Shown here piece by piece: positions 5,301-19,463 of a stretch of 64,000 bases of DNA. This DNA is from Propionibacteriaceae bacterium. GTDB lineage: Bacteria > Actinomycetota > Actinomycetes > Propionibacteriales > Propionibacteriaceae. The stretch covers positions 17,209 to 81,208 of the forward strand of contig DASQDG010000038.1 in the NCBI GenBank assembly GCA_035634295.1, given 5' to 3'. A model generated the notes under the pieces. It did not search any database, had not been told where the DNA came from, and saw only the letters and a list, made by a program, of their open reading frames with translations. The number at the start of each line of letters is the position of its first letter. Within the stretch, counting starts at the first letter, position 1. Made by a program: the position numbers and the translations under genes.

Positions 5301-5868
5301 CCAGGGCGGCAGCCAGCGCCCACCACCACGAACTGAGGCCTAGCAACGCCACCGCGACTCCCGCTGAGGTGCTGACCAGACTGGCCGCCACCACCCAACC
5401 TCGCAGGTCACGCGTGCGGGTGACGGTCGGCACCCCCGGCAGGTGCGCCACGACCGGCGGCTGGAAGCGCGCGGCTCGGCGCAGGAACGGCTCCCCCACC
5501 ACGCCCGCGGTGAGCAGAGCGACCGCCAGCGCGGCGCCGAGAACCTGGGCGGGGGCGGCGTTGAAGCCGATCAGGACGCCGAGGCCGGCCACGGTCAGGG
5601 TGCGCGCGACGATGGCTGCGCCCAGGACGCCGCGGCGCTGGACTCTGACCCGAAGCAGCAGCCTCAGCGACAGGCCCAGCACGCAGGCGGACAGCAGCGC
5701 GGTGGCCAGGGCGCTCGAGCTGCCGCCCGGGCGCAGCAGCGACGGTGACGGCGAGCTCAGTGCGCCGACCATGGCCGCCACCACGATCAGGGTGTCCAGA
5801 GCGAGGTTGACGTAGCGCTGCCGCTGTTGCGGGTTTCCGCTCACCTCCGGAGTCGTGATCGCGGTCAT
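2284..5868 (-). CDS. Membrane protein with two tandem CDP-polyol phosphotransferase (TagF/TagB-like) modules
   Basis: Two repeats of a multi-TM segment plus catalytic domain: GHGDSDK/NHGDSEK, VGRPQVE, VLYAPTW, IFRPHPF/IFRAHPF, SDAMxSDVSAVVSDYL. Start 5868 chosen from ATGA overlap with the upstream acyltransferase stop. Confidence 0.8.
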   Translation of the reverse strand: MTAITTPEVSGNPQQRQRYVNLALDTLIVVAAMVGALSSPSPSLLRPGGSSSALATALLSACVLGLSLRLLLRVRVQRRGVLGAAIVARTLTVAGLGVLIGFNAAPAQVLGAALAVALLTAGVVGEPFLRRAARFQPPVVAHLPGVPTVTRTRDLRGWVVAASLVSTSAGVAVALLGLSSWWWALAAALALVLPFLVAVRGRRKILTARRLRTVVPQAVADYAPEFVIYTSRPDDASYQVTMWLPYLQRAGRRFLVITRNSTPARALAELTDVPVVEARKISDLDALVPPSLKAAFYVNASSGNGVFVRYQHLTHIYLGHGDSDKPPSYNPTHAMYDRIFAAGPAATRRYAAHGVRIAADKFQVVGRPQVEDVVPTVRSISEVVQPVVLYAPTWRGHVEETLLYSLPVGERIVRALLERGSTVIFRPHPFNYDFPDDAATIGRIQALLAADAQTTGRVHLWGSAAESERGLLDCINASDAMVSDVSAVVSDYLFSLKPFAMIAVPSAPESFVEEYPVAQAAYVVDGDLSDLDAQLEEMLGPDPLATRRAAIRVDYLGDFEAEGYANAFVDAVRQVTSKTAEDDDETDDEGEGEEEPNGGSRAVGWSGYRRLLGGIGLNLSSTGLALVALAAALLDAPGLLTLLLCVLAGVAGILSAGTSLSDPYRWGGLLNQAPATRAVVLVVTGVLLADRGGLTPTAVLALVLLAVSTSGEAHIRSAWGGLGLLVRDFPLVGAQVTERIPRGVSTLVGFLVSLLAAALALVPPPGWVLLLLALVVLALFLDTLVTALLRASRALKAEGRLRGALQEYAPQFAVYFASTVGAAYQVGMWLPFFMRIGRPFIIVTRSVAMMREIAAVTAASEVEVPVIHRPTLRSLEDVIPPSLTTAFYVNNAVRNTHFVERRELTHVWLNHGDSEKPACYNPVHAIYDLLFTAGQAGIDRYHRHGIEIPREKFQIVGRPQVEAVRPAIGPPSAQPQPTVLYAPTWQGPFADTRVYSLPLGRQIVQELLARGVRVIFRAHPFNYRFSVCVDMIAAIGRLLAADKAATGREHLWGPAAEQQMTIEDCFNASDAMISDVSAVVSDYLHSEKPFAIVSVGRTPEQLLEEAPAAKAGYLLRQDLSNLDQVYDDLLQRDPLAQVRRQTKIYYLGDFPPDHYADGFLNAAREVIDAGERRSASALDTGEAGHHTPAAAAEA

Positions 5869-6926
5869 GGCCGCTCGGGAGAGCGTCGGAACAGCCATCC
5901 CACTGACGGTTCGACCAGGACTCGAAACGTGGCCGACACCACTGACGTCGACAGCACGGCCGTGAGCAGGAGAGCGCCCAGCACCAGGGCGAGCAAGACC
6001 ACGGGCGACTTGACGTCGTCGAGGTAGCCGGCCTGCAGCAAGAAGTAGATCGGCAGCAGGTGCAGCATGTAGACGTACATGGTCGCCCGGCCCCAACCGG
6101 TGACCGAAGTCGTCGAGGCCGAGGTCACCGACACGATGGCGACCACCAGCAGCAGGGCGATCCCGATCAGGAGAAGCCGGGTTCCGCCCGCGGCCCAGCC
6201 CTGCACGCCGATGGTGGCGTAGTTCTTCTCCACCTGGACCCACTCCCGCAGGTGATGCTCGCGAGCGAACGAGACGCCGAGCACGCAGCAGACCAAGGCG
6301 ACCAGGAGCACGCCCAGCGAAGTCGCACGGACCCAACCCCGCCGAAGGAACGGCAGTACCGAGGCCAATGACGGGCGTGACCGCATCGCCCAGCCGGCCA
6401 CGAAGAAGGGCAGCATGCCCAACACCCGGCTGGCGTCGAAGAGCCAGCCGATGGCGAAGTATCCGCTGATGCAGGCCACCGCGACCGCGACCACGACCGG
6501 CAGCTGCAGGTTTGCCATCAGCGGCAGGGCCAGTCGCCAGGCGGCCAGCGCGGGCAGGAACCACAGGTGCCAGTAGGGCGAGGTGAGGTCGAAGGTGAGC
6601 TTGCCCTCCTGCCACCAGCGGATCAGGGCCCAGAGCACGCTGAAGATCACGTACGGGGCCAACAGCTGGCTGATGATCCTCTGACCGTCGGCACCGGTGA
6701 TCGGCTCGGCCCGGGCGAAGTATCCGGAGATGAAGGCGAACAGCGGCATATGGAACGCATAGACGAACAGGTAGAGCGCGTACGCCAGGTCATAGCGCGA
6801 AGCCGACTCGATCGTGTGCCCTACGACCACCAGGGAGATGGCCAACAGCCGGAGGTTGTCCCACAGCGGATCGCGACTGCGGACCGCGCCGGTCGACGCG
6901 GCGGCGCTGGGAGTCGCGATCACCAT
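5865..6926 (-). CDS. Acyltransferase family 3 (OafA-like O-acyltransferase), multi-TM
   Basis: RDPLWDNLRLLAISLVVVGH, YAFHMPLFAFISGYF, WHLWFLPAL, GRATMYVYMLH; about 10 hydrophobic helices. Confidence 0.85.
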   Translation of the reverse strand: MVIATPSAAASTGAVRSRDPLWDNLRLLAISLVVVGHTIESASRYDLAYALYLFVYAFHMPLFAFISGYFARAEPITGADGQRIISQLLAPYVIFSVLWALIRWWQEGKLTFDLTSPYWHLWFLPALAAWRLALPLMANLQLPVVVAVAVACISGYFAIGWLFDASRVLGMLPFFVAGWAMRSRPSLASVLPFLRRGWVRATSLGVLLVALVCCVLGVSFAREHHLREWVQVEKNYATIGVQGWAAGGTRLLLIGIALLLVVAIVSVTSASTTSVTGWGRATMYVYMLHLLPIYFLLQAGYLDDVKSPVVLLALVLGALLLTAVLSTSVVSATFRVLVEPSVGWLFRRSPERP

Positions 6927-9900
6927 TCCGATGCAGGCGCGTCGCCGCGAGGAACGAAGACCGCATCCACCAGGCGTTCGGCGGCGCGGCCGTCCTCGAG
7001 GGGGAGGTAGTCGCTCCGGAACCGCCGATACTGCTCGGCGTATTCGGCCCGGACCTGATCCAGCTGCGACAGTGCCTCGATGATCTCGTCGGTGGTGTTG
7101 ACGAACGGACCCGGCGCGGTGGGCTCGAAGTCGAAGAGCCAGCCCCGGGTCTCGACGTAGCGCTGCAGGTCGGGCACGTGGAAGATCATCGGCTTGCCCG
7201 TGACCCCGAAGTCGAAGCGCAGCGAGGAGTAGTCCACCAAGGCCGCGTCGGCGGCCAGATAGAGGTCGCTCACCTCGGGATAGTCGGTGACGTCGATCAC
7301 CCCGGGGCGCGGCCGGATGCGCCGGTTCACTCGGGCGTTGAACGCGTGACCGCGGACCAAGACCACATAGTCATCGCCTAGGGCTGCGGTGACGGTGTCG
7401 AGGTCGAGGAAGTCCACCATCTCAGCCCGGTGGTCGTCGGGTGAGAGGTAGTCGCGGTAGGTCGGCGCGTACAACACGACGGTCTGGTCGGGCTTGATGC
7501 CGAACGCGTCGCGGACTCGTCGGCGCAGCTCGTCGGCGTGCGGCGACGACAACACGTCGTTGCGTGGATAGCCGATCTCGAGCACCTCACCGGAATAGCG
7601 GAAATCGCGGGTGAGCAGCGGGGTGGCGTACGGGGCCGGCGAGATGAGGTAGTCCCACTCGGCCGAGCGGCGCGCGTAGGAGTCGATCCGCTGAGTCGAG
7701 AAGCCGGCCCTGATCCAGTTCGGGTAGCCCATGGTCTTGAACGGGTAACCGTGGAAGGTCTGCATCAGCACCTGTCCGGCCGGCTTCACGTGGTAGTCCG
7801 GCTGGTACATGTTGTCCATGTAGTAGGTCACGCTGGACAGCAGCCGATACCACTCGGCGCTGTCCTTGACCACGCCGATACCGCCCTCGGGCACGGGTAC
7901 GGAGTGGTCCCGAATCGCCCAGTAGACCGGCAGGTCGCACCCCCGGCGGGCGAGCTCGGCCTGCAGCCCGACCCCGTTGTCAGTAGCGGACTCGCCAAAG
8001 TAGGACTGCAACAGCACGCCCCGGTGAGTGGCCCGGGCGTCGGCCCGCGGTCGACCGCGCAGCAGGTTCTGCCGGTAGCGCCCGGTGGCCTCGGCTCCCA
8101 ACGGACGGGTCAGCGACAGCTGCAGGTTGCCGCCGGCGCCGCCGCGGACCACCCGAGCGTTCACCAGCTCCGAACCCACCGAGACCGGGACCCGAAGCAG
8201 CAGTTCCGCCGACATCAGCACCGGGAACGGCGCGCTTTCCTCAACCGGGCCCGGCAGACCGGGGACGTCGGCCAGCACCCGGTATTCGCCCGAGCGGAGC
8301 GGCAACGTGCCGAACCGGCCCTCGGTGCGGGCGATCGGCACCGTGGCGTGGAAGCGACTCCCGTCGACCTCGGGCAGCACCCAGTCCGAGCGCCGGGTCG
8401 GATGGACCAGGGCGATCCGAAACGGCGCGGCAACCATGCCCGCGAAATGACCGCGAATCTCCAGGTCGCCGTGCGCGTTTGTGCTCAGCTCGGTGGCCAC
8501 CACCGCGCCTCGACGCTCGGTCACCGTCACCCGCCCGAACCGGGTCCGTTCCAAAGCGATCACCTGGCCCGGCAGCTCGACCGGCCCGGAGTCGCCTCGC
8601 CAGGCCACCGGAACTCTTGTCGTGGTGGTCTTGCCGTTCTCGGCTGTACCGCTGACCAGGGCCCGCACCCGCCAGCGACGAGTGGCGGCCGGACTGTCCA
8701 GCAGCCCCTCGGGCAGCGGCGGCAACGCGAGCGAGACCGGGGCACTGGCGTTCTCGGTCGGTTCGAGGGACGTCCGGGCGACCAGCCGAGCGCTCGAATT
8801 GGTCGCTTCAAATCCCACCACATGGCGAAGGTCGCCGTGCAGCACCCCGATCAGCTGCCGGTCCTGGATGGTGGCCTGGACGAGCTCGACCCCGGCTTCG
8901 TCCAGCCGAAGCCGCAACGGGCGTCGCCACTGCCACAGCAGGACCAGATGCGTGCCGTCGGGGCGTCGGCTGTGCTCCAGAGCCGCGGCAGAGCCACGCT
9001 GGTTGACACGGGTGATCGGCGCGGTCACCGAGAACCCGGCCACGTCAACCCGCAGATCGAGGTCCCAGACGTCTCCGATACTCGCTCCGACCTCGTCGCA
9101 CAGCTCGGCGAAAGGAACGTCGACGGCGAACTGGCCCCCCTCATAAGTCGCCCAAGGGTCGTCGTTGGGAGCGGGGAAGATCGGCACCGGCAGGTGCTGG
9201 TTGGCGAACTCAAAGGATCGACCGGTTCGACGGTGCCGGGCCAGCACCGTCACCTGATTGGTGGTGCCCGCGGGCGCCTCGGCCAGGTTGAGGTAGCGCA
9301 GGTAAGCCCAGCCACTCACTCGCAGTCGGGCATCGTGGGTCCACTCCAGGCCCTGCACCGAATGGGACAGCTCCAGCTGATCGGGGCGCAGCAGGAAGAG
9401 CTGCTTGTCCAGGCCGATCTCGGGATCGTCGAAGTAAGGCAGCTGCAGATAGAGGCCCTCGGGGGCGACCGTGGCCGGCCACTGGTGCAGGCGGTGGCCG
9501 TTGCGCGCGATGAACTCCCGGGCTTCCAGCTGCCGATTGGCGCACGCGAGCGCGATCATCACCCGGCGCATGGGCATGGTGCGGTCCCACACCTGCTGCG
9601 ATGCTGCACCGGCAAGATCAGAAACGGCACTCTGCAGCTCGCACCAGTAGTCGTGGGAGGTGGTGGACGGGCTGTTGAGGTACCAGTGGAAGTGCGCGTC
9701 GAAGAGGGTCTGCAGCCAGGCGTCGTAGATCTCGACCGACACCGTGTCCTGCAGGGCCTCGTGGCTGACCCGCCACGCGGCCACACGGTCCCGCACGTCG
9801 CTCACGGTGCTGGTCTGTTGGCTGATCGAACTGCCGTCGGCCCGGGCCCGATACTCATAGACCACCCGAGCGAGCACGTCGATCTTCCGCGCCCGGGCGT

Positions 9901-10594
9901 AGAGCTGGCTGATGATCGGCTGGTCCTCGTAGGCCACCCCTTCGCGAAAGGTCAGCCCCTGGGCGCGCCAGAACGAGCGTCGGTAGAGCTTGCCCCAGGT
10001 GTAGTTGTTGCGCAGCAGCCGCGGGAAGTCCTCCAGGGTGATGCCCAGCCGGGTCTTGGCGTGCAGCTCGTGCACCCACTCCGGCGTCCAGCGGCGGCTG
10101 CCGGTGAAGCGGACCGCGGCGCCGGCCACGATGTCGGCACCGCTACGGCGAGCCGAGCGCACCATCGGGCCGATGGCACCGAGCGGCAGGGAGTCGTCGG
10201 AGTCGACGAACATTAGGAACGTGCCGCGGGCGTGCTGGACTCCGGTGTTGCGGGCGGCGCCCAGGCCACCGTTGGGGCGCCGCACGATCTTGACTCGGGA
10301 GTCCTTGGCGGCGTAGCGCCTGGCGATCGCGTAGGACCTGTCCGGCGACCCGTCGTCGACGATGATCAGCTCGAAGTTCCGGAATCCCTGCGACAAGATG
10401 CTGTCCAGACACTCCGCCAGATAGGCCTCGACGTTGTAGATGGGCACGATGACGCTGACCGCAGGTCGAGGCTGGCGGGGCTTGGGCGGCCGGGCGGCCG
10501 GCTGCGGTCGGCGCAAGCCTGGCAGCCGACGCAGCTGGCGGCGTACGGGAAGGGGCAGACGTCGACCGAGGGAGCGGACAATACTTCTTCTCAT
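6920..10594 (-). CDS. Bifunctional GT2 glycosyltransferase / TagF-like polyol-phosphate polymerase
   Basis: N-terminal GT2 (VSVIVPIYNVEAYL, IVDDGSPD, FLMFVDSDD); C-terminal TagF-like (QTFHGYPFK, GYPRND, LYAPTYRD, VRGHAF, VDYSSLRFDF). Start could be 10645. Confidence 0.88.
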   Translation of the reverse strand: MRRSIVRSLGRRLPLPVRRQLRRLPGLRRPQPAARPPKPRQPRPAVSVIVPIYNVEAYLAECLDSILSQGFRNFELIIVDDGSPDRSYAIARRYAAKDSRVKIVRRPNGGLGAARNTGVQHARGTFLMFVDSDDSLPLGAIGPMVRSARRSGADIVAGAAVRFTGSRRWTPEWVHELHAKTRLGITLEDFPRLLRNNYTWGKLYRRSFWRAQGLTFREGVAYEDQPIISQLYARARKIDVLARVVYEYRARADGSSISQQTSTVSDVRDRVAAWRVSHEALQDTVSVEIYDAWLQTLFDAHFHWYLNSPSTTSHDYWCELQSAVSDLAGAASQQVWDRTMPMRRVMIALACANRQLEAREFIARNGHRLHQWPATVAPEGLYLQLPYFDDPEIGLDKQLFLLRPDQLELSHSVQGLEWTHDARLRVSGWAYLRYLNLAEAPAGTTNQVTVLARHRRTGRSFEFANQHLPVPIFPAPNDDPWATYEGGQFAVDVPFAELCDEVGASIGDVWDLDLRVDVAGFSVTAPITRVNQRGSAAALEHSRRPDGTHLVLLWQWRRPLRLRLDEAGVELVQATIQDRQLIGVLHGDLRHVVGFEATNSSARLVARTSLEPTENASAPVSLALPPLPEGLLDSPAATRRWRVRALVSGTAENGKTTTTRVPVAWRGDSGPVELPGQVIALERTRFGRVTVTERRGAVVATELSTNAHGDLEIRGHFAGMVAAPFRIALVHPTRRSDWVLPEVDGSRFHATVPIARTEGRFGTLPLRSGEYRVLADVPGLPGPVEESAPFPVLMSAELLLRVPVSVGSELVNARVVRGGAGGNLQLSLTRPLGAEATGRYRQNLLRGRPRADARATHRGVLLQSYFGESATDNGVGLQAELARRGCDLPVYWAIRDHSVPVPEGGIGVVKDSAEWYRLLSSVTYYMDNMYQPDYHVKPAGQVLMQTFHGYPFKTMGYPNWIRAGFSTQRIDSYARRSAEWDYLISPAPYATPLLTRDFRYSGEVLEIGYPRNDVLSSPHADELRRRVRDAFGIKPDQTVVLYAPTYRDYLSPDDHRAEMVDFLDLDTVTAALGDDYVVLVRGHAFNARVNRRIRPRPGVIDVTDYPEVSDLYLAADAALVDYSSLRFDFGVTGKPMIFHVPDLQRYVETRGWLFDFEPTAPGPFVNTTDEIIEALSQLDQVRAEYAEQYRRFRSDYLPLEDGRAAERLVDAVFVPRGDAPASEW

Positions 10595-10767
10595 CTCGAA
10601 CCTCGACGCACGTCTGGTCGCTGTGCCGGGCGGCGGCAGCATCACGGGAGTTTACCGTCCCCGCCTGTCCAGCTCACCCTGCGCCGCGCGCCGTGGTCGC
10701 GCGAGCCGTTTCTGCTCTAATGGGCTAGGTCACCTCAGCCCGCATACCTCGACTGGAGTTCCCCGCC

Positions 10768-11667
10768 GTGTCTGACGCGAAGCCCGTACGCACGATGAAC
10801 GACATCCCGGGGTGGTTCACCTGGACAGACCAGCAGCTTTTCCGCTATTTCCTGCACAACGCGGCTCCCGAACTCCCAGGCGACCTCGTCGAGCTGGGAA
10901 CCTATATGGGCAAGAGTGCGGTCCTGATCGGAGAATATCGGCGCCCCGACGAGCGGTTTGTGGTGTGCGACCTCTTCAACGACGAGTCCGACCTCGCCAA
11001 CAACATCGAGAACACCCGGTCATACCGGTCACTGACCCGGGAGGCGTTCGAGGCCAACTACCAGGCCGTGCGCGGGGAGCTGCCCGAGGTCGTGCAAGGA
11101 CTGTCCTCGACCATCACCGAGCACGTGGCACCGGCCAGCGTCCGCTTTATGCACGTCGACGCCTCACACCTTTATGAGCACGTGGTGATCGATATCGCCT
11201 CGGCCACCTCGCTGCTGACCAGTGACGGCATCGTGGTCTTCGACGACATCCAGAGCCGGCACACGCCAGGCGTTGCCGCGGCGGTCTGGTCGGCGGTGGT
11301 GGACGGGCGGTTGAAGCCCATCTGCATGACTCCGTCCAAGCTCTACGCGACGCTGGGCGACCCGACCCCGATCCGCTCGGGGTTCCAGGACTGGCTGATC
11401 AAGTTTGGCCGGCTGATGTGGGAAACCCAGGAGATCGCCGGCCTGGAGATCATCCGGCTGTGGCCACCGCCACCGGCCAAGCCGGCGGCGCCGGCGGCCA
11501 ATCCCGACTTCGAGGACGCGCTGCGTCGGATCAACCGGCGGCTGACCAGGATCGAGCAGCAGTTGACCCAGACCAACCGTCAACTCGAGCAGAGCTTCGG
11601 CCGGCGGGTGCAGAGGTCGGTGATTCGACGGGTGAAGAAGCTCCGGACGGCTACTCCGCAGGCGTGA
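10768..11667 (+). CDS. Class I SAM-dependent methyltransferase (Methyltransf_24-like) with C-terminal coiled coil and basic tail
   Basis: GDLVELGTYMGKSA, FMHVDASHLYEHV, GIVVFDD; heptad repeat LRRINRRLTRIEQQLTQTNRQLEQ near the C-terminus. Confidence 0.8.
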   Translation: MSDAKPVRTMNDIPGWFTWTDQQLFRYFLHNAAPELPGDLVELGTYMGKSAVLIGEYRRPDERFVVCDLFNDESDLANNIENTRSYRSLTREAFEANYQAVRGELPEVVQGLSSTITEHVAPASVRFMHVDASHLYEHVVIDIASATSLLTSDGIVVFDDIQSRHTPGVAAAVWSAVVDGRLKPICMTPSKLYATLGDPTPIRSGFQDWLIKFGRLMWETQEIAGLEIIRLWPPPPAKPAAPAANPDFEDALRRINRRLTRIEQQLTQTNRQLEQSFGRRVQRSVIRRVKKLRTATPQA

Positions 11668-13525
11668 CCACCGAGACCCGTCGGAGCCGGTCCACGTCGA
11701 AGCTCACCTTGGTGTGGACCGTTCTACCGGCGTAGCTGATGCCGATGGCATAGCGGCCGGGCGCCAGGCCGACGGTCGCCTCGATCCGGACGCCGTCCGA
11801 GTCGCCCAGCAGCCGGGCGTCGTGGCGTCGCTGTTGGCCGGTGAGGTCGGTCAGCACCAGGGCACACGGGATGGACGTGGTCCCGGTGGCCTTGACTGAG
11901 CGCAGCCCTACGGTCACCCGCTGATGCCGGACGCCGGCGCGAACCGTGGTCACGTCGGTCGCGGCCACCGTACGGGCCCTGGCGGTATCCAGGAAGTCAG
12001 GCACGTCTTGGCCCTTGACCAGGGTCAACACGCCGTCGTCGCCGGGACCCACCCAGGTAACGACGCCGTTCACCAGCCGCACCACCGGCTTGGCCTCGCT
12101 GACCAGGGCCTTGCGGTGGAAATAGCCGAGGACTTCTGACCGGCAGGCGAACTGCCAGCTGCCGTCCTTGATCGGCCGACCCATGATGGCGTCGGCCAGG
12201 TCAAGGGCGACGTCTGCGGCCACGCTGACGGTCGCCAGGTCCTCGTCGCCACCGATCCGGACCCGGCTGGTGGTCTGGGGCAGCGGGAAGGGCGCCATGT
12301 CGGTGCTCTCACGTAGCGCCAGCACTGACTCCGCTTGTTCGATGTGGTCGGTGACGTCGACCAGCTCGGGCGGCAGAGCCTGCAGCAGCGACGGCTCGAG
12401 GTCGCGCAGCAGCCGGTCGCCCACCCGGCGGAACTTCAGGTCTCCGTCGCCACTGAGCCGCCACGTGGTGGTGCAGGACAGGTGCAACCTGCCGTCTGAG
12501 GCCCACGACGCCTCGACCGGCGTCGTACGGGCCCACACTCGCTGGTCGGCCTCGGCCAGCCGCCACAGCAGCGCGTCCTGATCATCGCGCAGCAGGTATG
12601 AGCGAGCCAGAGCGACCGGCGACAGCCCGGCGTCGACCTCCAGCGGGGCGTGCTTCGCCACGAACGGCCGCATCCGCTCGCGGGAGCGTTCCACCAGCTC
12701 TCGGCTGAGGTTGAGCGAGCGTGGCCCCACCCAGGTCAACAGCACCCGGGCGACGTACTCGATCTGCTGCATCTTGAGCAGATCGGCCGGTGCAAGCACC
12801 CGGGCGAACTCGTCGAACACGTCGATCATGACGGGCCAGTAGATGTCCAGGTCCCACTGCCGGGGGTTGCCGACGTAGGACTGGGAGTTGTTACTGCCGG
12901 TTTCGGTATGCCATTTGTAGAAAGGCACCGAGGACAGCATGCCGATCCGCTTGGCCTGGGCGTAGGCGGCGACGTTGAACAACCGGTCCTCCCAGTGCAC
13001 CCGCTGGCCTTCCCGGAAGCGGATGCCGCAGCTGCGCAGGAACTCCGTTCGGTAGAGCTTGTGCGGCATCATCGGAATCAGCAATCCGGGGTCCTTGGGC
13101 TGCTGGGGAGCGATGTCGGCGTTGTACTCCACCCAGCTCCAGTTGTCGGCGGTCCAGGTCACCTCCTTGGCGTTCAAGATGTCCAGCTGGGCCGCGGCGG
13201 CGAAGTCGTAGGCAGCCGACAGGGCCTCTGGGTAAAGCTCGTCGTCGTGGTCCATGAACAGCACGTACTCACCGCGTGCCAACTGGACGCCGGTGTTTCG
13301 CGGCCGGCTGGGCCAGCCCGAGCGCGAGATCTCGTGGACCGCAAAGTTGGGCCGGGTGCGGGCGATCTCGTGCAGCCGCTGCGGGGTGTCGTCGCCAGAC
13401 TCGTCGTCGATGAAGAGCACCTCGAACTCGTCGGCGGCCAGAGTCTGCTCATCGAGTGAGCGCACCACCCGATCCAGCCCGTCGCCGGAGCGGTACGTGG
13501 GCACGATCACGGTCACCTTAACCAC
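11651..13525 (-). CDS. GT2 family glycosyltransferase with long C-terminal accessory domain
   Basis: VKVTVIVPTYRS, FIDDESGD, SGWPSRPRN, YVLFMDHDDEL (DxD), WEDRLFN. Start moved to GTG 13525. Confidence 0.85.
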   Translation of the reverse strand: MVKVTVIVPTYRSGDGLDRVVRSLDEQTLAADEFEVLFIDDESGDDTPQRLHEIARTRPNFAVHEISRSGWPSRPRNTGVQLARGEYVLFMDHDDELYPEALSAAYDFAAAAQLDILNAKEVTWTADNWSWVEYNADIAPQQPKDPGLLIPMMPHKLYRTEFLRSCGIRFREGQRVHWEDRLFNVAAYAQAKRIGMLSSVPFYKWHTETGSNNSQSYVGNPRQWDLDIYWPVMIDVFDEFARVLAPADLLKMQQIEYVARVLLTWVGPRSLNLSRELVERSRERMRPFVAKHAPLEVDAGLSPVALARSYLLRDDQDALLWRLAEADQRVWARTTPVEASWASDGRLHLSCTTTWRLSGDGDLKFRRVGDRLLRDLEPSLLQALPPELVDVTDHIEQAESVLALRESTDMAPFPLPQTTSRVRIGGDEDLATVSVAADVALDLADAIMGRPIKDGSWQFACRSEVLGYFHRKALVSEAKPVVRLVNGVVTWVGPGDDGVLTLVKGQDVPDFLDTARARTVAATDVTTVRAGVRHQRVTVGLRSVKATGTTSIPCALVLTDLTGQQRRHDARLLGDSDGVRIEATVGLAPGRYAIGISYAGRTVHTKVSFDVDRLRRVSVVTPAE

Positions 13526-13703
13526 CCAAAAACGGTACCAACCGCGGTGCTGCCGGCTTGGCCGCCAATGACTGCGCCGGCCAGCACCGGGCGGCTCAGA
13601 CTCCGAGCCGCAGACGGCACTGGACCAGCCGTTAGAGTGTGCCGCAATGCCCACTCGGGACTGCGCCGAAGCAGGCCGGCCCGGGGTCACCTCAGGAGGA
13701 CCA

Positions 13704-15317
13704 GTGGTCGACGTCAGTGTCCTGGTGAACACTCATAACTCGAGGGAGGCCCTCGGCGGACTGTTTGACTCCCTCGATCGGCAGTCGCTGGCCGTGAGCG
13801 CATTCGAGGTGGTCGCGGTCGACCAAGGCTCCACCGACGGCACCCTCGAGCTGCTCACCAAGCTGGCGTCTCACCGGCCCAACGTGGCCGTCATCACCGC
13901 TGATGACGTCGCTGCCGGCCGGTTCGGGTCGGAGCAGGTCGCCGGCGACTACGTGCTGAACGTCGAGCCGCAGATGCGGCTGTTTCCCGAAGCCCTCCAG
14001 CGACTCAGCCACTGGGCCCGCACGCACGACCTGGACGGGGTTGCGGGACGGGTGGCCACCGGCGCGGAGGCGATCCCGGACCTCCTCCTGACGGACTCCC
14101 CCGCGCTGGACCGCGGGGCGCTCCCCGAGCTCCTCGACGCCGCGGTGGTGCTGGTGCGCAGAACGGCGCTGGCCGCCGAGACCGGCGAGGGGTTGGCGAG
14201 GGTGGGAGTGCTCGGCAGCTATCCGGTGCTCACCCGGCCGCGCCCCGAGGCTGGCGAGCCGGTGGCCGCGCTGGTGCAGGAGCGGGTGTCTGCCAGATGG
14301 CAGGACGGCCGGCTCCTCCTAGAGGTCGCGGGCACGGTGTCCACGAGCCTCGGCGCCAAGGGCGAGGGCGAGGGCGAGCCGAGCGTGGCGGCCCTGATCC
14401 GTTCTGCGACCTCCGGCGTGTCGTACGTCGTTCCCGCACACAGCGAGCTCACCGAGGCCGCCGAAGGGCGGTCGTGGACAGCCACCCTCGAGCTGGACGT
14501 TGCCACCGCCGCCCTGGGCCAGCCGCTGCCGCACGACACCTGGGAGCTCGACCTGCAGCTGACTGGGCCCGGCGTGGCGCGTCACCGACGGCTGACCGTC
14601 GGCGCTGCATCCTGCCCGCCGGCTCTGCTGCCGACCGGTCCGGTGGTGGTGGCCAGCGTCGACGGCCGGTTGCAGGTCGACGTCGGTCCGACGCGGCACC
14701 CGTTGATCTCCAACGCCGATCCGGCCTGGGGCACCATCACCGAGAGCGCCGCCGGAACGCTGCTGGTGATGCAGCTCCCCGAGCTGTACGTCGTTTCGGG
14801 TGCCGGTGAGCTCGAAGGACACGTGGCGCTGGGCAGCTTTCGCCTGCGCGCCTGGGTCAGTAACGACGGGCAACGCGCGTGGCTGACGACGTACCTGAGC
14901 GGGCTCGCGGGGGTGACGCCGGTGAACGCGATGTTCGGCGACTGCCCGGCCAAGCCGACCGGGCTGGAACTGACCATCTCCGGCGTCGGGGCCATGAGTC
15001 TGGCCCGGCCGACGCCGGCCAAGCCCGCACCCCCGGCCAAGCCCGCTCCCCCGGCCAAGCCCGCGACCAAGAAACCGGCGAGCGGCAAGCCGCCGGGCAA
15101 GAACCCGACGAGCGGTCAGCCCGCGAGCGGAAAGCCGAAGAGTCAGCCGTCGTCGGCGAAGAGGCCCGGAAGCAAGAAGAAGCCACCGGCCAAGAAGCCC
15201 ACGGGTCCGGTGGCGCAGATCCGCCGGGCGATCCCTGCCCCGCTGGAACCGGCCATCCGACGACTCGCGGCGGTGCCGGCCGCCCGGAACTGGTATCGCC
15301 GGCTGACCAAGCTGTGA
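13704..15317 (+). CDS. Degenerate GT2-like protein lacking DxD, with Pro/Ala/Lys-rich C-terminal tail
   Basis: AGGAGG RBS before GTG 13704. N-terminus aligns by eye to the neighbouring GT2 (VSVLVNTHNS, VAVDQGSTDG), but the DxD region reads YVLNVEPQMRLFPEAL. Confidence 0.7.
   Translation: MVDVSVLVNTHNSREALGGLFDSLDRQSLAVSAFEVVAVDQGSTDGTLELLTKLASHRPNVAVITADDVAAGRFGSEQVAGDYVLNVEPQMRLFPEALQRLSHWARTHDLDGVAGRVATGAEAIPDLLLTDSPALDRGALPELLDAAVVLVRRTALAAETGEGLARVGVLGSYPVLTRPRPEAGEPVAALVQERVSARWQDGRLLLEVAGTVSTSLGAKGEGEGEPSVAALIRSATSGVSYVVPAHSELTEAAEGRSWTATLELDVATAALGQPLPHDTWELDLQLTGPGVARHRRLTVGAASCPPALLPTGPVVVASVDGRLQVDVGPTRHPLISNADPAWGTITESAAGTLLVMQLPELYVVSGAGELEGHVALGSFRLRAWVSNDGQRAWLTTYLSGLAGVTPVNAMFGDCPAKPTGLELTISGVGAMSLARPTPAKPAPPAKPAPPAKPATKKPASGKPPGKNPTSGQPASGKPKSQPSSAKRPGSKKKPPAKKPTGPVAQIRRAIPAPLEPAIRRLAAVPAARNWYRRLTKL
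15015..15064 (+). repeat. 18-bp coding tandem repeat (PAKPAP x3)
   Basis: ccggccaagcccgc at 15015, 15033 and 15051. Confidence 0.9.
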
Positions 15318-15409: not shown

Positions 15410-16171
15410 CTAGGACTGAGTAAGCGGCGACCGGACGAAGCCGGCGCCCAGGCTCTGGGTCACCACGTCGTCCAGACGACGACGCAGCTCGTCCGGGCTC
15501 TGGTCGGGGTCAGACAGCACCGACCACAGAGGGGACTCCAGCACCCGCTCGGGCAACAGTGTGGTGGTGCGTTCGAGCAGGTCGGTCGGCACGGGCTGCG
15601 GGTCGGGATGGCGGAACTCGGCCATGATCTCGTCGTAGCTGTCGATCAGCACTGAGTTGTCCGGGTCCAGCCCCATCACCAGCAGCAGGCCCGTGGGCCG
15701 GGTGCGGACCGGGAGCACGATCAGCTCAGGTCGGTAGCGTTCCAGCACGGCCAGCACCGGATAGACGTCACCCGTCCACGCAAACGTATGCCGTTCACGG
15801 GCGGCCTCGTCGATCGAGCGCGGCAGCACGTCATCGAAGACGATCACGCCACGAGGCGAACTGTGCCGCTCGGTGTTGATGAAGTCGCGCAGCGCGAACT
15901 CGAAGAGGTGCAGGCCGTCGATGAAGGCCAGATCGAAGGGCTTGCCGCCGGTCGGTGCCAAGGGGTCGGGCCGGTTGAAGTACTCGTCGCTGGTGGTCCG
16001 GAACAAGGTGACCTGGTTGTTCAGCTCGGCCTGGATGGAAAATGCCGGGTCGATGCCCACCGCAGGGCATTTCGCGAGCGCCATGCTGATGCCCCGCTCG
16101 ACCCCGATTTCGAGGTAGTGCCGGGGCTGAAGCTGCTCGTGGATGCTGGTCAGGAACTCCCGGTAGAACAT
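15410..16171 (-). CDS. Class I SAM-dependent methyltransferase (Methyltransf_24-like)
   Basis: YLEIGVERG, DLAFIDGLHLFE, GVIVFDDVLP. Confidence 0.85.
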   Translation of the reverse strand: MFYREFLTSIHEQLQPRHYLEIGVERGISMALAKCPAVGIDPAFSIQAELNNQVTLFRTTSDEYFNRPDPLAPTGGKPFDLAFIDGLHLFEFALRDFINTERHSSPRGVIVFDDVLPRSIDEAARERHTFAWTGDVYPVLAVLERYRPELIVLPVRTRPTGLLLVMGLDPDNSVLIDSYDEIMAEFRHPDPQPVPTDLLERTTTLLPERVLESPLWSVLSDPDQSPDELRRRLDDVVTQSLGAGFVRSPLTQS

Positions 16172-16250: not shown

Positions 16251-17660
16251 GTGGCCAAGTTGCGCAACGTCGCCGTGGTGCTCGCGGGCGGCACCGGCAC
16301 CCGGGTGGGCCTCAGCATCCCCAAGCAGCTGATCAAGATCGCCGGCAAGCCGATCATCGAGCACACCATCGCCGCGATGCAGCAGTCACCGGTGATCGAC
16401 GAGATCCTGGTGATGATGGCGCCGGGCTACCTGGACGAGATCCGGGCGATCGTCCGCGGCGGCGCCTACGACAAGGTCACCCAGATCCTCGAGGGCGCCG
16501 GCACCCGGAACGACACCACGTCCGCCGCGCTGGCCGCACTCGGCGGCGAAGACTGCAACGTGTTGCTGCACGACGCGGTCCGGCCGCTGGTCAGCCAGAC
16601 GATCATCGCCGCGAACGTCGCCGCGCTGGAATCGCACGAGGCGGTGGACACCGCCATCGCGTCGGCCGACACGGTGATCAAGGTGACCGCTGAGACCGGC
16701 CTGATGGCCGACGTGCTGCCCCGACACCTGCTGCGACGCGGTCAGACGCCCCAGTCGTTTCGGCTGTCCACCATTCGAGCGGCCTACGCTAAGGCAGCAA
16801 CGGACCCCAACTTCACCGCCACCGACGACTGCACGGTCGTGCTGCGCTACCTGCCCGACGTTCCCATCGCGGTCGTGCCGGGCCACGAGCGCAACATGAA
16901 GGTCACCGAGCCGATCGACGTCTACATCGCCGACAAGCTCTTCCAGCTGACGTCGGCAGACACGCCGGCGGCGCTGTCCGACAACGAATACCGCGCCCGG
17001 CTGACCGGCAAGACGCTGGTGGTTTTCGGCGGTTCGTACGGCATCGGTGGTGACATCGTCGAGCTGGCCCGGACCTACGGCGCCACCGTGCGCACCTTCT
17101 CCCGGTCCTCGACCGGCACCCACGTGGAGCGGCGCGAGGACGTGGTGGCAGCGGCCCGGGCGGTGTTGAACGAGACCGGCCAGATCGACTTCGTGGTGAA
17201 CACCGCAGGCGTGCTGCCGCGGGGCAAGCTGGCCGAGACCAGCGAGGAGACCATCTTCCAGGCCACGGACGTCAACTATCTGGCCCCGATCATCATCGCG
17301 CAGGAGTTCTTCCCCCATTTGAGCCAGACCCGCGGCTCGCTGCTGCTCTTCACCTCGTCGTCCTACACCCGAGGACGGTCCGGCTACTCGCTCTACTCCT
17401 CGGCCAAGGCGGCGGTGGTCAACCTGACGCAGGCGCTCGCCGACGAGTGGGGCCACGCGCACGTCCGGGTCAACTGCATCAACCCCGAACGGACCGCAAC
17501 CCCGATGCGCACCCGTGCCTTCGGCGCGGAGCCGGCCGGCACCTTGCTGACCTCAGAAGAGGTGGCCCGGCAGTCCCTGGACGTGTTGCTGTCCGGCCAG
17601 ACCGGGCACGTGATCGACATTCGTCGCGCAGAAGGACCCGCCGCGCTGGCCGGTGGTTAG
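16251..17660 (+). CDS. Bifunctional IspD/TarI-type cytidylyltransferase + SDR reductase (Bcs1-like CDP-ribitol synthase)
   Basis: N-terminal VLAGGTGTRVG..PKQL, LLHDAVRP, GQTPQSF, NMKVTEPID; C-terminal SDR VVFGGSYGIG, NTAG, YSSAK. TACAGT -10 box 6 nt before GTG. Confidence 0.85.
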   Translation: MAKLRNVAVVLAGGTGTRVGLSIPKQLIKIAGKPIIEHTIAAMQQSPVIDEILVMMAPGYLDEIRAIVRGGAYDKVTQILEGAGTRNDTTSAALAALGGEDCNVLLHDAVRPLVSQTIIAANVAALESHEAVDTAIASADTVIKVTAETGLMADVLPRHLLRRGQTPQSFRLSTIRAAYAKAATDPNFTATDDCTVVLRYLPDVPIAVVPGHERNMKVTEPIDVYIADKLFQLTSADTPAALSDNEYRARLTGKTLVVFGGSYGIGGDIVELARTYGATVRTFSRSSTGTHVERREDVVAAARAVLNETGQIDFVVNTAGVLPRGKLAETSEETIFQATDVNYLAPIIIAQEFFPHLSQTRGSLLLFTSSSYTRGRSGYSLYSSAKAAVVNLTQALADEWGHAHVRVNCINPERTATPMRTRAFGAEPAGTLLTSEEVARQSLDVLLSGQTGHVIDIRRAEGPAALAGG

Positions 17661-17702: not shown

Positions 17703-19094
17703 CTACAGGACCGTATCCACGAGGACCATGTTGTGGTCCGAGGGACGAAGGCTGTCGGTCACCTTCATCACGTTCTCGTAGCGGGCGGTGCCCCAGGCGC
17801 GCTTGACGTAGAGGTGGTCGAGCCGGACGCCGACACCGTGTGCGGACAGCGGGATGCGGGTCTTGAAACCGTTGAAGGTCGTGTACCGAAAGTTGACCCT
17901 CCTGGTGGCCGCGGAGGTGTCGTAGTAGCCGAGTCGCACCAGCCGGTCGTGCGGGCTGTTGCCGACGCGGTTGTTCTGCCAGGAGTTGAAGTCACCCCCG
18001 ATGATGACGGGGTCCTTCGACCGGTTGTGGTAGGCAACCGCGCCCGCGGCGTAGTTGGCCTGCCGGTAGCGCAGGGCGTCGTACTTTCTTTCGGTGGCGG
18101 CATTGCCGCTGTGCCGGTGGTCGAGGTGCACCGACACCACCCAGAAGCGCTTGCCGGTCCGGCGGTCACGGAAGTGCGCGATGGCGCCCCGCCGCTTGTC
18201 CTTACCGCTGTCAGAGCTGAGAATCGGCAGGGTCAGGCTGCACGCGTTGGAGTAGGAGCGTCCGCCGGTGGACTCCGGGCAGCGGTTGATCAAGCTGTAG
18301 CGGTTGGAGTCGTAGAGAATACGGCCGCCCTGCGTGCCGGAGGGCACACCGGGCGCGACGTACGGGGTGGTCCGGACTAACCGATAGCGCCCGCCGCCGT
18401 TCCTGGCCAGCGCGGTGAGCAGGCTGGTGGTCTGGCGTGGGTTTCCTTTGGTGGTGCCCTTCTTGCCGTCCGCCCGGCCGGGGCCGAGCTCCTGCAGCGC
18501 CACCACGCCCGGGTGCTGATAAACGATCTGGCGGGCCACCTTGTTCACCCGCTGGTTCCAGCTGTGCTTGTCCTGGGTGGCGTAGGAGGTCCGTACGTTG
18601 AACGTGGCCACCCGAATGGGCGTGCCCTTGGCCTTGGGGGCGGCTGGTCGGGGCAGCACCGCGCGCTGATAAGGGTACGCGCGGACCGCCATGCCGCTGC
18701 CGGCGGTGTTCACGGCGTAGAGCCGGAAGAACAGCGCATTGCCCGAGGCCACACCAGCGCCCAGAGAGTAGACCTTGCTCGCCGACAAGGTCGCAGAACG
18801 CTGCCTGCCGGAGAAGTACGTAACCCGGGAGCGGCGACCGCCGCTGGGACCGGCGGAGCTGCTGCGGCCGAACGTGTTGAGTGCGGTCACCAGCCGGAAC
18901 CCGCTGGTGTTGCGCCCTGTGGAGGACCACCGCAAGGTGATTTGTCCGGTGCGGGGGCCGGGCGAGGCGCTGACGCTGGTGATGGCTGCTGGCGTTGCGG
19001 GTCGAGCCGCCGCGGCGGGTTGTGGGGCGAGGAGAGCGGGAAGGAGGGCGAAGGCGGACCATGCGGACAACACGGCCACTGTCGATTTGGGCAC
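17703..19094 (-). CDS. Secreted endonuclease/exonuclease/phosphatase (EEP) family protein with N-terminal Fn3-like domain
   Basis: Signal-peptide-like N-terminus ending AAAA; VATFNV, ALQEL, IIGGDFNS, RLDHLYV, SDHNMV. Start uncertain (19094 or 19115). Confidence 0.8.
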   Translation of the reverse strand: MPKSTVAVLSAWSAFALLPALLAPQPAAAARPATPAAITSVSASPGPRTGQITLRWSSTGRNTSGFRLVTALNTFGRSSSAGPSGGRRSRVTYFSGRQRSATLSASKVYSLGAGVASGNALFFRLYAVNTAGSGMAVRAYPYQRAVLPRPAAPKAKGTPIRVATFNVRTSYATQDKHSWNQRVNKVARQIVYQHPGVVALQELGPGRADGKKGTTKGNPRQTTSLLTALARNGGGRYRLVRTTPYVAPGVPSGTQGGRILYDSNRYSLINRCPESTGGRSYSNACSLTLPILSSDSGKDKRRGAIAHFRDRRTGKRFWVVSVHLDHRHSGNAATERKYDALRYRQANYAAGAVAYHNRSKDPVIIGGDFNSWQNNRVGNSPHDRLVRLGYYDTSAATRRVNFRYTTFNGFKTRIPLSAHGVGVRLDHLYVKRAWGTARYENVMKVTDSLRPSDHNMVLVDTVL

Positions 19095-19463
19095 GAGTGG
19101 GGACTCCCTGACCATAAGGATTGAATGTCGGTTAATCCCCCGAGAGCCTGTTCGGCGACGCTCCACCCAGTGGTGGCAAATGCGTCACATGCTGCGTGTG
19201 AACTGAGCCTCAGCTGTCGTCCATTAGCCCGACGACGTCCACCCGAGAAAGAGTGCGAGAGGTGACCGCAATGCCTAGGAGGTCGCCATTAGTCAACCAA
19301 GTCAGCTGATTGGGCGGGATAATGCTTGCTGCCCATTTACTGTGTCTCGATGATTCAATATAAGCAGGAAGACACCCGATAATCAAAAAAGGCGGCGACA
19401 TTTGTCGCGCTATTCTCAGGAATAGTGGCCTAAAGGCATGACTGACATCGGTACTTTCATCGG

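Follow-up and report, generated by a model that had tools for sequence, protein, structure and literature searches.

The locus described here raises the question whether an actinobacterial methyltransferase, encoded among genes for a polyol-phosphate wall polymer, ends the growth of that polymer and thereby sets its length, or whether it has another part in the same pathway. The DNA studied, below called the window, is a stretch of 64,000 nucleotides of high-GC actinobacterial DNA (≈0.69 GC) from a Propionibacteriaceae genome of 3.66 Mb (120 contigs, 94.9% complete). A preliminary description of the window had compared the protein encoded at 10768-11667 with WbdD of E. coli O9a, and had proposed that it is a terminating methyltransferase on a short coiled coil that would give short chains. 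The genes of the cluster were called as GC3-supported open reading frames with Pfam and NCBIfam matches, as follows:

2284 to ≈5800, minus strand: double membrane plus TagF-like protein
5865-6926, minus strand: Acyl_transf_3 membrane O-acyltransferase
6920-10645, minus strand: GT2, central region and TagF-like glycerol/ribitol-phosphotransferase, divergent to the methyltransferase gene
10768-11667, plus strand: the 299-aa methyltransferase, of the sugar O-methylating type and with a tether module at its C-terminus
11651-13732, minus strand: TarS-like GT2 (GT2 domain and TarS_linker), convergent with the methyltransferase gene
13647-15317, plus strand: GT2-like protein with PAKP/Lys-rich linker and Arg-rich C-terminus
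15410-16171, minus strand: second Methyltransf_24 protein of 253 aa, lacking a coil and a basic tail
16251-17660, plus strand: IspD-type cytidylyltransferase-SDR fusion (TarI/TarJ-like)
17703-19166, minus strand: Exo/endo-phosphatase-family protein

Housekeeping genes adjoin the cluster at either end: one flank has a 5'-3' exonuclease gene, and the opposite flank contains Der, Cmk, prephenate dehydrogenase and proteasome/Pup genes. With TagF-like, GT2, TarS-like and TarI/J-like neighbours, the methyltransferase gene does lie amid genes for a polyol-phosphate polymer, as had been proposed. The IspD-SDR fusion is a probable source of CDP-ribitol, and the cluster is predicted to be of a ribitol-phosphate teichoic-acid-like type, its product being a predicted polyanion on the basis of the TagF-like and TarI/J-like genes. 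The 3' ends of the TarS-like GT2 gene and the methyltransferase gene overlap by 17 bp. The GT2-TagF reading frame encodes up to 1241 aa (1175 aa according to the gene callers); its long reading begins with an Arg/Pro-rich peptide, RRSIVRSLGRRLPLPVRRQLRRL, and since the GC3 value is 0.73 and the gene callers start later, it is doubtful that these 66 N-terminal codons are coding. The second methyltransferase, which had been set apart from the first by its lack of a coil, is a real gene and is indeed coil-less, its strand being the minus strand, and the two proteins have only the motifs [VI]D-x-x-HL-[YF]-E and V-V-F-D-D in common.

The methyltransferase gene is an open frame with coding-type composition (GC3 0.86, GC2 0.46). 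It starts with GTG at 10768, preceded by GGAG ≈10 nt upstream, and an alternative ATG is present at codon 10. The product can be divided into four parts:

10768-11460, plus strand, aa 1-231: catalytic domain, class I Rossmann methyltransferase (Methyltransf_24)
11461-11505, plus strand, aa 232-246: Pro/Ala-rich linker WPPPPAKPAAPAANP, extended in the structural model
11506-11589, plus strand, aa 247-274: four-heptad amphipathic helix, a candidate short coiled coil of ≈4 nm
11590-11649, plus strand, aa 275-294: Arg/Lys-rich amphipathic helix QSFGRRVQRSVIRRVKKLRT, out of heptad register

The tail thus runs from W232-PPPPAKPAAPAA-N245 through D247 FEDALRRINRRLTRIEQQLTQTNRQLE 274 to QSFGRRVQRSVIRRVKKLRTATPQA. 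Between aa 247 and 274, each of the seven strongly hydrophobic residues (F248, L252, I255, L259, I262, L266 and L273) is at an a or d position, T269 being the sole polar d position, and no L, I or F is found outside a/d. The resulting a/d string, F-L-I-L-I-L-T-L, contains the L/I/L/I/L/T/L pattern reported earlier, and its heptad score was matched by none of 20,000 shuffles; the register stops at L273. A weak Pfam match of aa 247-275 to WXG100 (E=0.003, below cut-off) was set aside as generic helix similarity. The segment that follows (276-293, SFGRRVQRSVIRRVKKLR) has a net charge of +8. Its helical hydrophobic moment, 0.67, exceeds that of shuffles only marginally (p≈0.035). A net charge of at least +8 in the C-terminal 30 residues is found in 28 of the 2854 ORFs of the genome (1%), the methyltransferase among them. 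The AlphaFold2 model, based on a 65-sequence alignment (mean pLDDT 92, pTM 0.79), shows residues 233-245 as extended and 246-294 as a single helix.

Comparison with close orthologues (64-88% identity) shows that the three-part tail is retained down to ≈64% identity. Across orthologues P0001-P0007 the coil contains no indels and its a/d residues stay hydrophobic, the linker differs in length (it is ≈12 residues longer in P0008), and the basic peptide is at least as conserved as the coil. In two orthologues a proline stands between coil and basic helix (LSLPRRVQ), and for this reason we treat the coil and the basic helix as two separate elements. Taken together, the sequence, the heptad and charge statistics, the model and the conservation among orthologues agree, and hence confirm the tail as it was first described; with the Methyltransf_24 match, the layout of catalytic domain, linker, coil and basic end is borne out.

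The tail has no hydrophobic stretch (mean Eisenberg hydrophobicity ≈-0.67) and a transmembrane anchor was for this reason rejected. Instead the basic helix (aa 275-294) is probably a membrane- or partner-binding peptide, and its charge and amphipathicity suggest that the tail may bind the membrane itself. By eye, distant homologues have a plausible equivalent of it in their RRVAREVLPPVITRALKALR-type tail. We also considered that the Arg-rich tail binds the polyol-phosphate chain, or some other acidic partner, and so acts as an element for substrate capture or processivity. The net charge together with a narrow hydrophobic face and marginal amphipathicity would suit such a role, as would the polyanionic nature predicted for the polymer, but the LLPPxxTRA-type motif conserved in distant homologues looks specific beyond plain charge, and the mechanism has no precedent in the literature that we found. 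We regard it as very improbable.

With respect to the catalytic domain, Pfam Methyltransf_24 (PF13578) matches aa 41-161 over the complete profile (positions 1-105 of 105) with a score of 55.4 bits against a cut-off of 26.3 (E=1.3e-14). No NCBIfam model matches the protein, and the sources that list members of the subfamily name them just "class I SAM-dependent methyltransferase". Searching the PDB with the single protein sequence gave a chance-level match alone (heparinase-like, E=0.31), and with the family profile MeT1 was the only sequence match (E=1.3e-3). When the model was compared with the PDB using Foldseek, the top match was MeT1 of Mycobacterium hassiacum (E=7e-9, probability 1.0), followed by CalS11, NovP, SpnH and MycF (probability 1.0), which were mixed with COMT-class (catechol-type) O-methyltransferases; target-normalised TM-scores to MeT1 and these four proteins were 0.5-0.66. 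All five, i.e. MeT1 (PDB 6G7D/6G80), NovP, CalS11, SpnH and MycF (TylF class), methylate sugar hydroxyls and have the same catalytic fold and motifs as the window protein, at a sequence identity of 16-20%. In the SAM loop E42-L-G44-T-Y-M-G48 (E42-L-G44-x-x-x-G48), residues E42, G44 and G48 are invariant across 65 homologues, as is D68, the acidic residue after strand 2. The same holds for the acidic residues D131, D159 and D160, which by analogy with NovP and MycF (TylF/NovP type) are candidate metal ligands; their motifs recur in the second methyltransferase. No kinase domain was found in the protein by Pfam, and WbdD chains were absent both from the family-profile search of the PDB at E≤10 and from the top 50 Foldseek matches. 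The structural matches, the invariant motifs and the absence of a kinase point to a head that is apparently an active sugar-type O-methyltransferase whose sequence relation to the WbdD head is undetectable. The window protein differs from the MeT1/NovP class, the members of which have ≈200-250 residues, by the addition of the 68 C-terminal residues that form linker, coil and basic tail, and by its location in a teichoic-acid-like cluster rather than in a natural-product or methylmannose-polysaccharide cluster.

How far, then, does the likeness to WbdD reach? WbdD is a trimer in which a parallel coiled coil holds the methyltransferase and kinase heads ≈200 Å off the membrane; altering the length of the coil alters the modal chain length, and the part of WbdD nearest the C-terminus both attaches to the membrane and brings in the polymerase (PMC5082667; PMC11231755). 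The window protein has the module order of WbdD (E. coli O9a/O8; Klebsiella pneumoniae O3/O5), namely an N-terminal methyltransferase, a heptad helix and a basic amphipathic C-terminus, and both proteins belong to a cytoplasmic-face pathway that builds a lipid-linked polymer. The likeness that had been proposed holds for this order (PMC11231755; PMC5082667) and fails for the head, which shows neither a detectable sequence relation nor a kinase, and for the reach of the coil, which comprises 28 residues and ≈4 nm (≈42 Å) as compared to ≈20 nm. Moreover, the product of the WbdD pathway is a polymannan, whereas the predicted polymer of the window cluster is a polyol phosphate with sugar branches. 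On this comparison rests the reading in which the coil would form an oligomer, the basic helix would anchor it beside the polymerase, and methylation of the distal hydroxyl of the growing chain, or of its last sugar, would end elongation at a short modal length as soon as the chain could reach the active site. We consider it unlikely overall. The fixed length of the coil within the close subclade, next to a variable linker, is in its favour, and so is MeT1, the nearest solved structure, which we take to act at the end of an oligosaccharide as an end-blocking methyltransferase of a polysaccharide; this function is reportedly the subject of a 2019 PNAS paper.

Other terminating enzymes, too, are carried on the far end of a coiled coil, among them the N-terminal methyltransferase-kinase of Klebsiella pneumoniae O7 ORF6, and also WbbB and O4 ORF7, and a terminator on a coiled coil has been described as a marker of ABC-transporter-dependent assembly (PMC11231755). 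These proteins are large and have long coils and extra kinase, CBM or GT modules, whereas the window protein has a single domain, 299 residues and four heptads. Pfam and NCBIfam searches gave no ABC transporter within the cluster, and when a polymer exporter was sought genome-wide, the ABC-2 permease loci examined were located on contigs without TagF-like genes. The ATPases of these loci resemble general exporters, as judged by eye. In WbdD-type systems the cap is often read by Wzt. The Wzt_C domain (PF14524) had zero matches in the source genome (94.9% complete), which counts against a cap that ends the chain, and a cap reader of another kind is possible in this genome. In addition, cryo-EM work on TarL explains how long teichoic acids become by the polymerase and by association with the membrane, and invokes no dedicated terminator (PMC10901376).

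To see which parts of the tail are general, we surveyed 198 near-full-length homologues. A C-terminal tail with 20 aa or more is present in 91% (median 61), a basic end (net charge of at least +5 in the last 25 residues) in 77%, a Pro-rich tail start in 61% and an LLPPxxTRA-type motif in 35%. A heptad segment of at least 21 residues occurs in 33%, as compared to 4% of shuffled tails. The comparison of coil lengths that had been suggested gives a constant length in P0001-P0007. Some members lack a spacer, and in others it extends to ≈250 residues of Ala/Glu-rich helix. From this range and from the survey it follows that the conserved design is a head, a variable spacer and a basic peptide, the coil being one form of the spacer among several. 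That a spacer and a basic end are present in most members is difficult to reconcile with a decorating enzyme that diffuses freely, and is in this respect an argument for termination.

The gene neighbourhood was surveyed at 67 species-representative loci, each of at least 15 kb, with neighbours counted within 10 kb. A TagF-like gene was found at 27/67 loci and a related GT2 gene at 46/67; a TagF neighbour would be expected by chance at ≈3-4%, an estimate based on how densely TagF-like loci occur in the genome that contains the window. Members with a Pro/Ala spacer and an LLPPxxTRA-type tail, mostly from Streptomyces, stand beside TagF/GT2 genes in 37 of 42 cases, as opposed to only 4 of 15 coil-type members. 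Hence the relatives next to TagF/GT2 genes mostly have Pro/Ala-rich and probably flexible spacers, while coil types are mostly elsewhere, which speaks against the coil as a ruler in polymer termination. The subclade of the window is an exception in that it is of the coil type and nevertheless has a glycopolymer-gene context: P0004 (73% identity) has the same synteny as the window, and P0008 (64%) directly adjoins an IspD and SDR (TarI/J-like) fusion with GT2 genes and GtrA nearby. A Streptomyces homologue likewise adjoins GT2 and TagF genes.

About one third of the surveyed loci lie away from glycopolymer genes, including P0007 (65% identity), which is outside any glycopolymer cluster, and most of the coil-type members; a Spirillospora homologue is likewise stand-alone. 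These loci bear on the alternative that the substrate is a lipid-linked molecule close to the membrane (a linkage unit, a glycolipid or lipoglycan, or a polyprenyl-phospho-sugar) and that the tail does no more than place the active site at the bilayer. An enzyme that works at an interface could well have a basic amphipathic C-terminus, and the many stand-alone members in Actinomadura, Nonomuraea, Streptosporangium and Spirillospora, away from TagF/GT2 genes, could act on a substrate made elsewhere. For a substrate at the bilayer surface, however, the head would not need to be 40-100 residues away from its anchor, and genes for polymer synthesis surround the methyltransferase gene of the window and its close orthologues. 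We find this alternative improbable.

The tail also has a counterpart within the cluster. The GT2-like protein encoded at 13647-15317 has at its C-terminus a PAKP/Lys-rich linker of ≈90 aa and then an Arg-rich peptide, QIRRAIPAPLEPAIRRLAAVPAARNWYRRLTKL, and its orthologue (L123) retains this tail. A linker with an Arg-rich end is consequently not unique to the methyltransferase, which favours a general membrane or complex tether, and the tail may be a shared tether and not a device specific to a terminator. An HMM built from 45 LLPPxxTRA-type tails gave no match at E<3 among the complete set of GC3-supported ORFs of the genome. Its length and complexity are too low for such a profile to be useful, and the resemblance between the methyltransferase and GT2 tails is therefore qualitative only.

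The reading that we prefer, with about even confidence, is that of a membrane- or complex-tethered sugar O-methyltransferase which would decorate the lipid-linked glycopolymer made by the cluster. The enzyme would be a metal- and SAM-dependent O-methyltransferase of the MeT1/NovP/TylF structural class that acts at the cytoplasmic face of the membrane, and its substrate would be the lipid-linked ribitol-phosphate-type wall glycopolymer. The basic helix would keep it at the anionic surface of the membrane or attach it to the synthase complex, and the heptad helix would assemble it into a dimer or trimer. The acceptor may be a hydroxyl of a sugar branch, e.g. of the glycosyl residue that the TarS-like GT2 would attach, or a hydroxyl of the polymer. 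We lean towards sub-stoichiometric methylation of the sugar branches over an obligatory cap at the chain end, and regard control of chain length as unproven. One point counts against decoration: to our knowledge, WTA-decorating enzymes such as TarS need no membrane anchor, and the conserved spacer and anchor are therefore not obviously needed for simple decoration.

Wall polymers with comparable chemistry occur in Streptomyces. The ribitol-phosphate WTA of Streptomyces antibioticus has beta-Glc branches, a small proportion of which are 3-O-methylated, and in Streptomyces griseus the non-reducing end of WTA-linked teichuronic chains has a 4-O-acetyl cap (UtrI) (PMC13274773). These are actinobacterial ribitol-phosphate polymers, with sugar branches that are partly O-methylated and chain ends with a small blocking group. 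The partly 3-O-methylated beta-Glc branches of S. antibioticus represent a precedent for decoration (PMC13274773). The same observations can be read in support of termination, given that a cap at the non-reducing end exists in the S. griseus chains and that a cap present once per chain would also give a small proportion of 3-O-methyl-Glc in S. antibioticus (PMC13274773). The methyltransferase responsible for the 3-O-methyl-Glc is not named in that report, the term being absent from its main text and used once, in an unrelated connection, in its supplements. Apart from this Streptomyces umbrella-toxin paper (PMC13274773), literature searches gave neither a teichoic acid with a methyl cap nor an enzyme of the family under a name of its own.

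Conservatively read, the data describe a large, uncharacterised family of sugar O-methyltransferases with a conserved C-terminal tether, and the O-methyl sugars that have been described from wall polymers of actinobacteria are likely to be made by its members. Such sugars bear on the diversity of phage and umbrella-toxin receptors. A bolder generalisation, which we think rather doubtful, is that the family consists of widespread actinobacterial terminators of WTA-type chains, with a MeT1-like head, a spacer (coil or Pro/Ala-rich) whose length is specific to the lineage and which keeps the head away from the membrane, a conserved Arg-rich anchor and a methyl cap at the distal end that sets chain length. 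If true, a WbdD-like solution would have arisen independently on another methyltransferase scaffold, by convergent evolution of an "enzyme on a stalk" ruler. No dedicated enzyme of length control would have preceded it for polyol-phosphate polymers of Gram-positive bacteria, and it would provide a testable molecular handle on the length of Gram-positive wall polymers.

Finally, the family is large. One search gave 1646 homologues, and an exhaustive search of 50%-identity representatives gave 1776 at E≤1e-3, with Streptomyces, Actinomadura, Spirillospora and Solicola among the hosts where these are named. Within the window's class, the methyltransferase gene has a patchy distribution, being present in 12/301 genomes and 5/151 genera. 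Among species-representative genomes, relatives of the methyltransferase are encoded at at least 585 places, in genera that include Nonomuraea, Streptosporangium, Microtetraspora, Sphaerisporangium, Actinoplanes and Jatrophihabitans, and also in Chloroflexia and Limnocylindria MAGs (Chloroflexota).

Homologues of the methyltransferase (10768-11667, plus strand) with approximately 50% identity and a tail of the LLPPVITRA type are present in Chloroflexota MAGs (L044 and L049, Chloroflexia; L080, Limnocylindria), and within the class to which the genome belongs the family is patchy, being found in 5 of 151 genera. Taken together, these two observations suggest that the family gene has spread horizontally. 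In G093, a genome belonging to that class, contig C23 has two family copies in tandem, approximately 0.5-0.7 kb apart (L010, L021 and L032), which are 49% and 42-48% identical to the query. In Streptosporangiales the family gene stands alone, and the tail is of the coil type with a conserved terminal motif:

L051, L060, L064, L075 and L081: Actinomadura (including A. madurae) and Spirillospora, tail end AVRGSVSFRVGR-x-TA-x-PR
L066, L068, L082, L095, L096 and L100: Streptosporangium, Microtetraspora and Nonomuraea, tail end ISLAGPVV-x-RAVRWTRR

Madurose (3-O-methyl-galactose) in whole-cell sugars is a known mark of these Streptosporangiales genera, and we speculate that the family might be linked to its formation there.

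The window encodes a second methyltransferase:

15410-16171, minus strand: second methyltransferase

The similarity between the two proteins is confined to the motifs [VI]D-x-x-HL-[YF]-E and VVFDD (BLASTP between them gave E=2e-4 across 35 residues), and the weak PDB match of the second is MeT1, as it is for the first. The two are distant members of one superfamily and not recent paralogues. At its 3' end the first methyltransferase gene overlaps that of the convergent TarS-like GT2 gene (minus strand) by 17 bp (11651-11667), which means that an intergenic terminator cannot fit between the two genes.

A basic tail on one other protein encoded in the window, and a possible basic terminus on another, were also noted:

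13647-15317, plus strand: GT2-like protein with a basic tail (within the C-terminal ~125 codons; counterpart at 5943-7511 of L123, a 73%-related contig)
10448-10645, minus strand: Arg/Pro-rich first 66 codons (RRSIVRSLGRRLPLPVRRQLRRLPGLRR...) of the 1241-aa GT2-TagF ORF

The C-terminus of the GT2-like protein consists of a PAKP/Lys-rich low-complexity stretch of ~90 residues followed by the Arg-rich peptide QIRRAIPAPLEPAIRRLAAVPAARNWYRRLTKL, and an equivalent tail, ARLRRAAPQSLEPVIRRIAGSPVARDLYRRVTGL, is retained in L123. The design corresponds to that of the methyltransferase tail, except that the GT2 tail is without the heptad helix. The GT2-TagF protein is a candidate for carrying an Arg-rich terminal peptide as well, depending on its true start; GC3 over the first 66 codons is only 0.73 compared with 0.87 for the gene, and gene callers on identical contigs let the protein begin with the GT2 domain, which makes it 1175 aa long instead of 1241 aa.

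Another TagF-like ORF has an apparent N-terminal extension:

2284 to ~5800, minus strand: long protein of two diverged modules, each combining a TagF-like domain with several transmembrane helices

The extension, up to 6615, was rejected as non-coding since from ~5865 onwards the frame plot follows the Acyl_transf_3 gene instead.

Outside the window, a further basic low-complexity tail lies near wall-polymer genes on contig C87 of the same genome:

C87 59776-61809, plus strand: 677-aa ORF ~11 kb from another TagF-like gene, its C-terminal end a long Lys/Pro-rich repeat (KPTKAKPTKAKPRKEAKPGKEAKPGK...)
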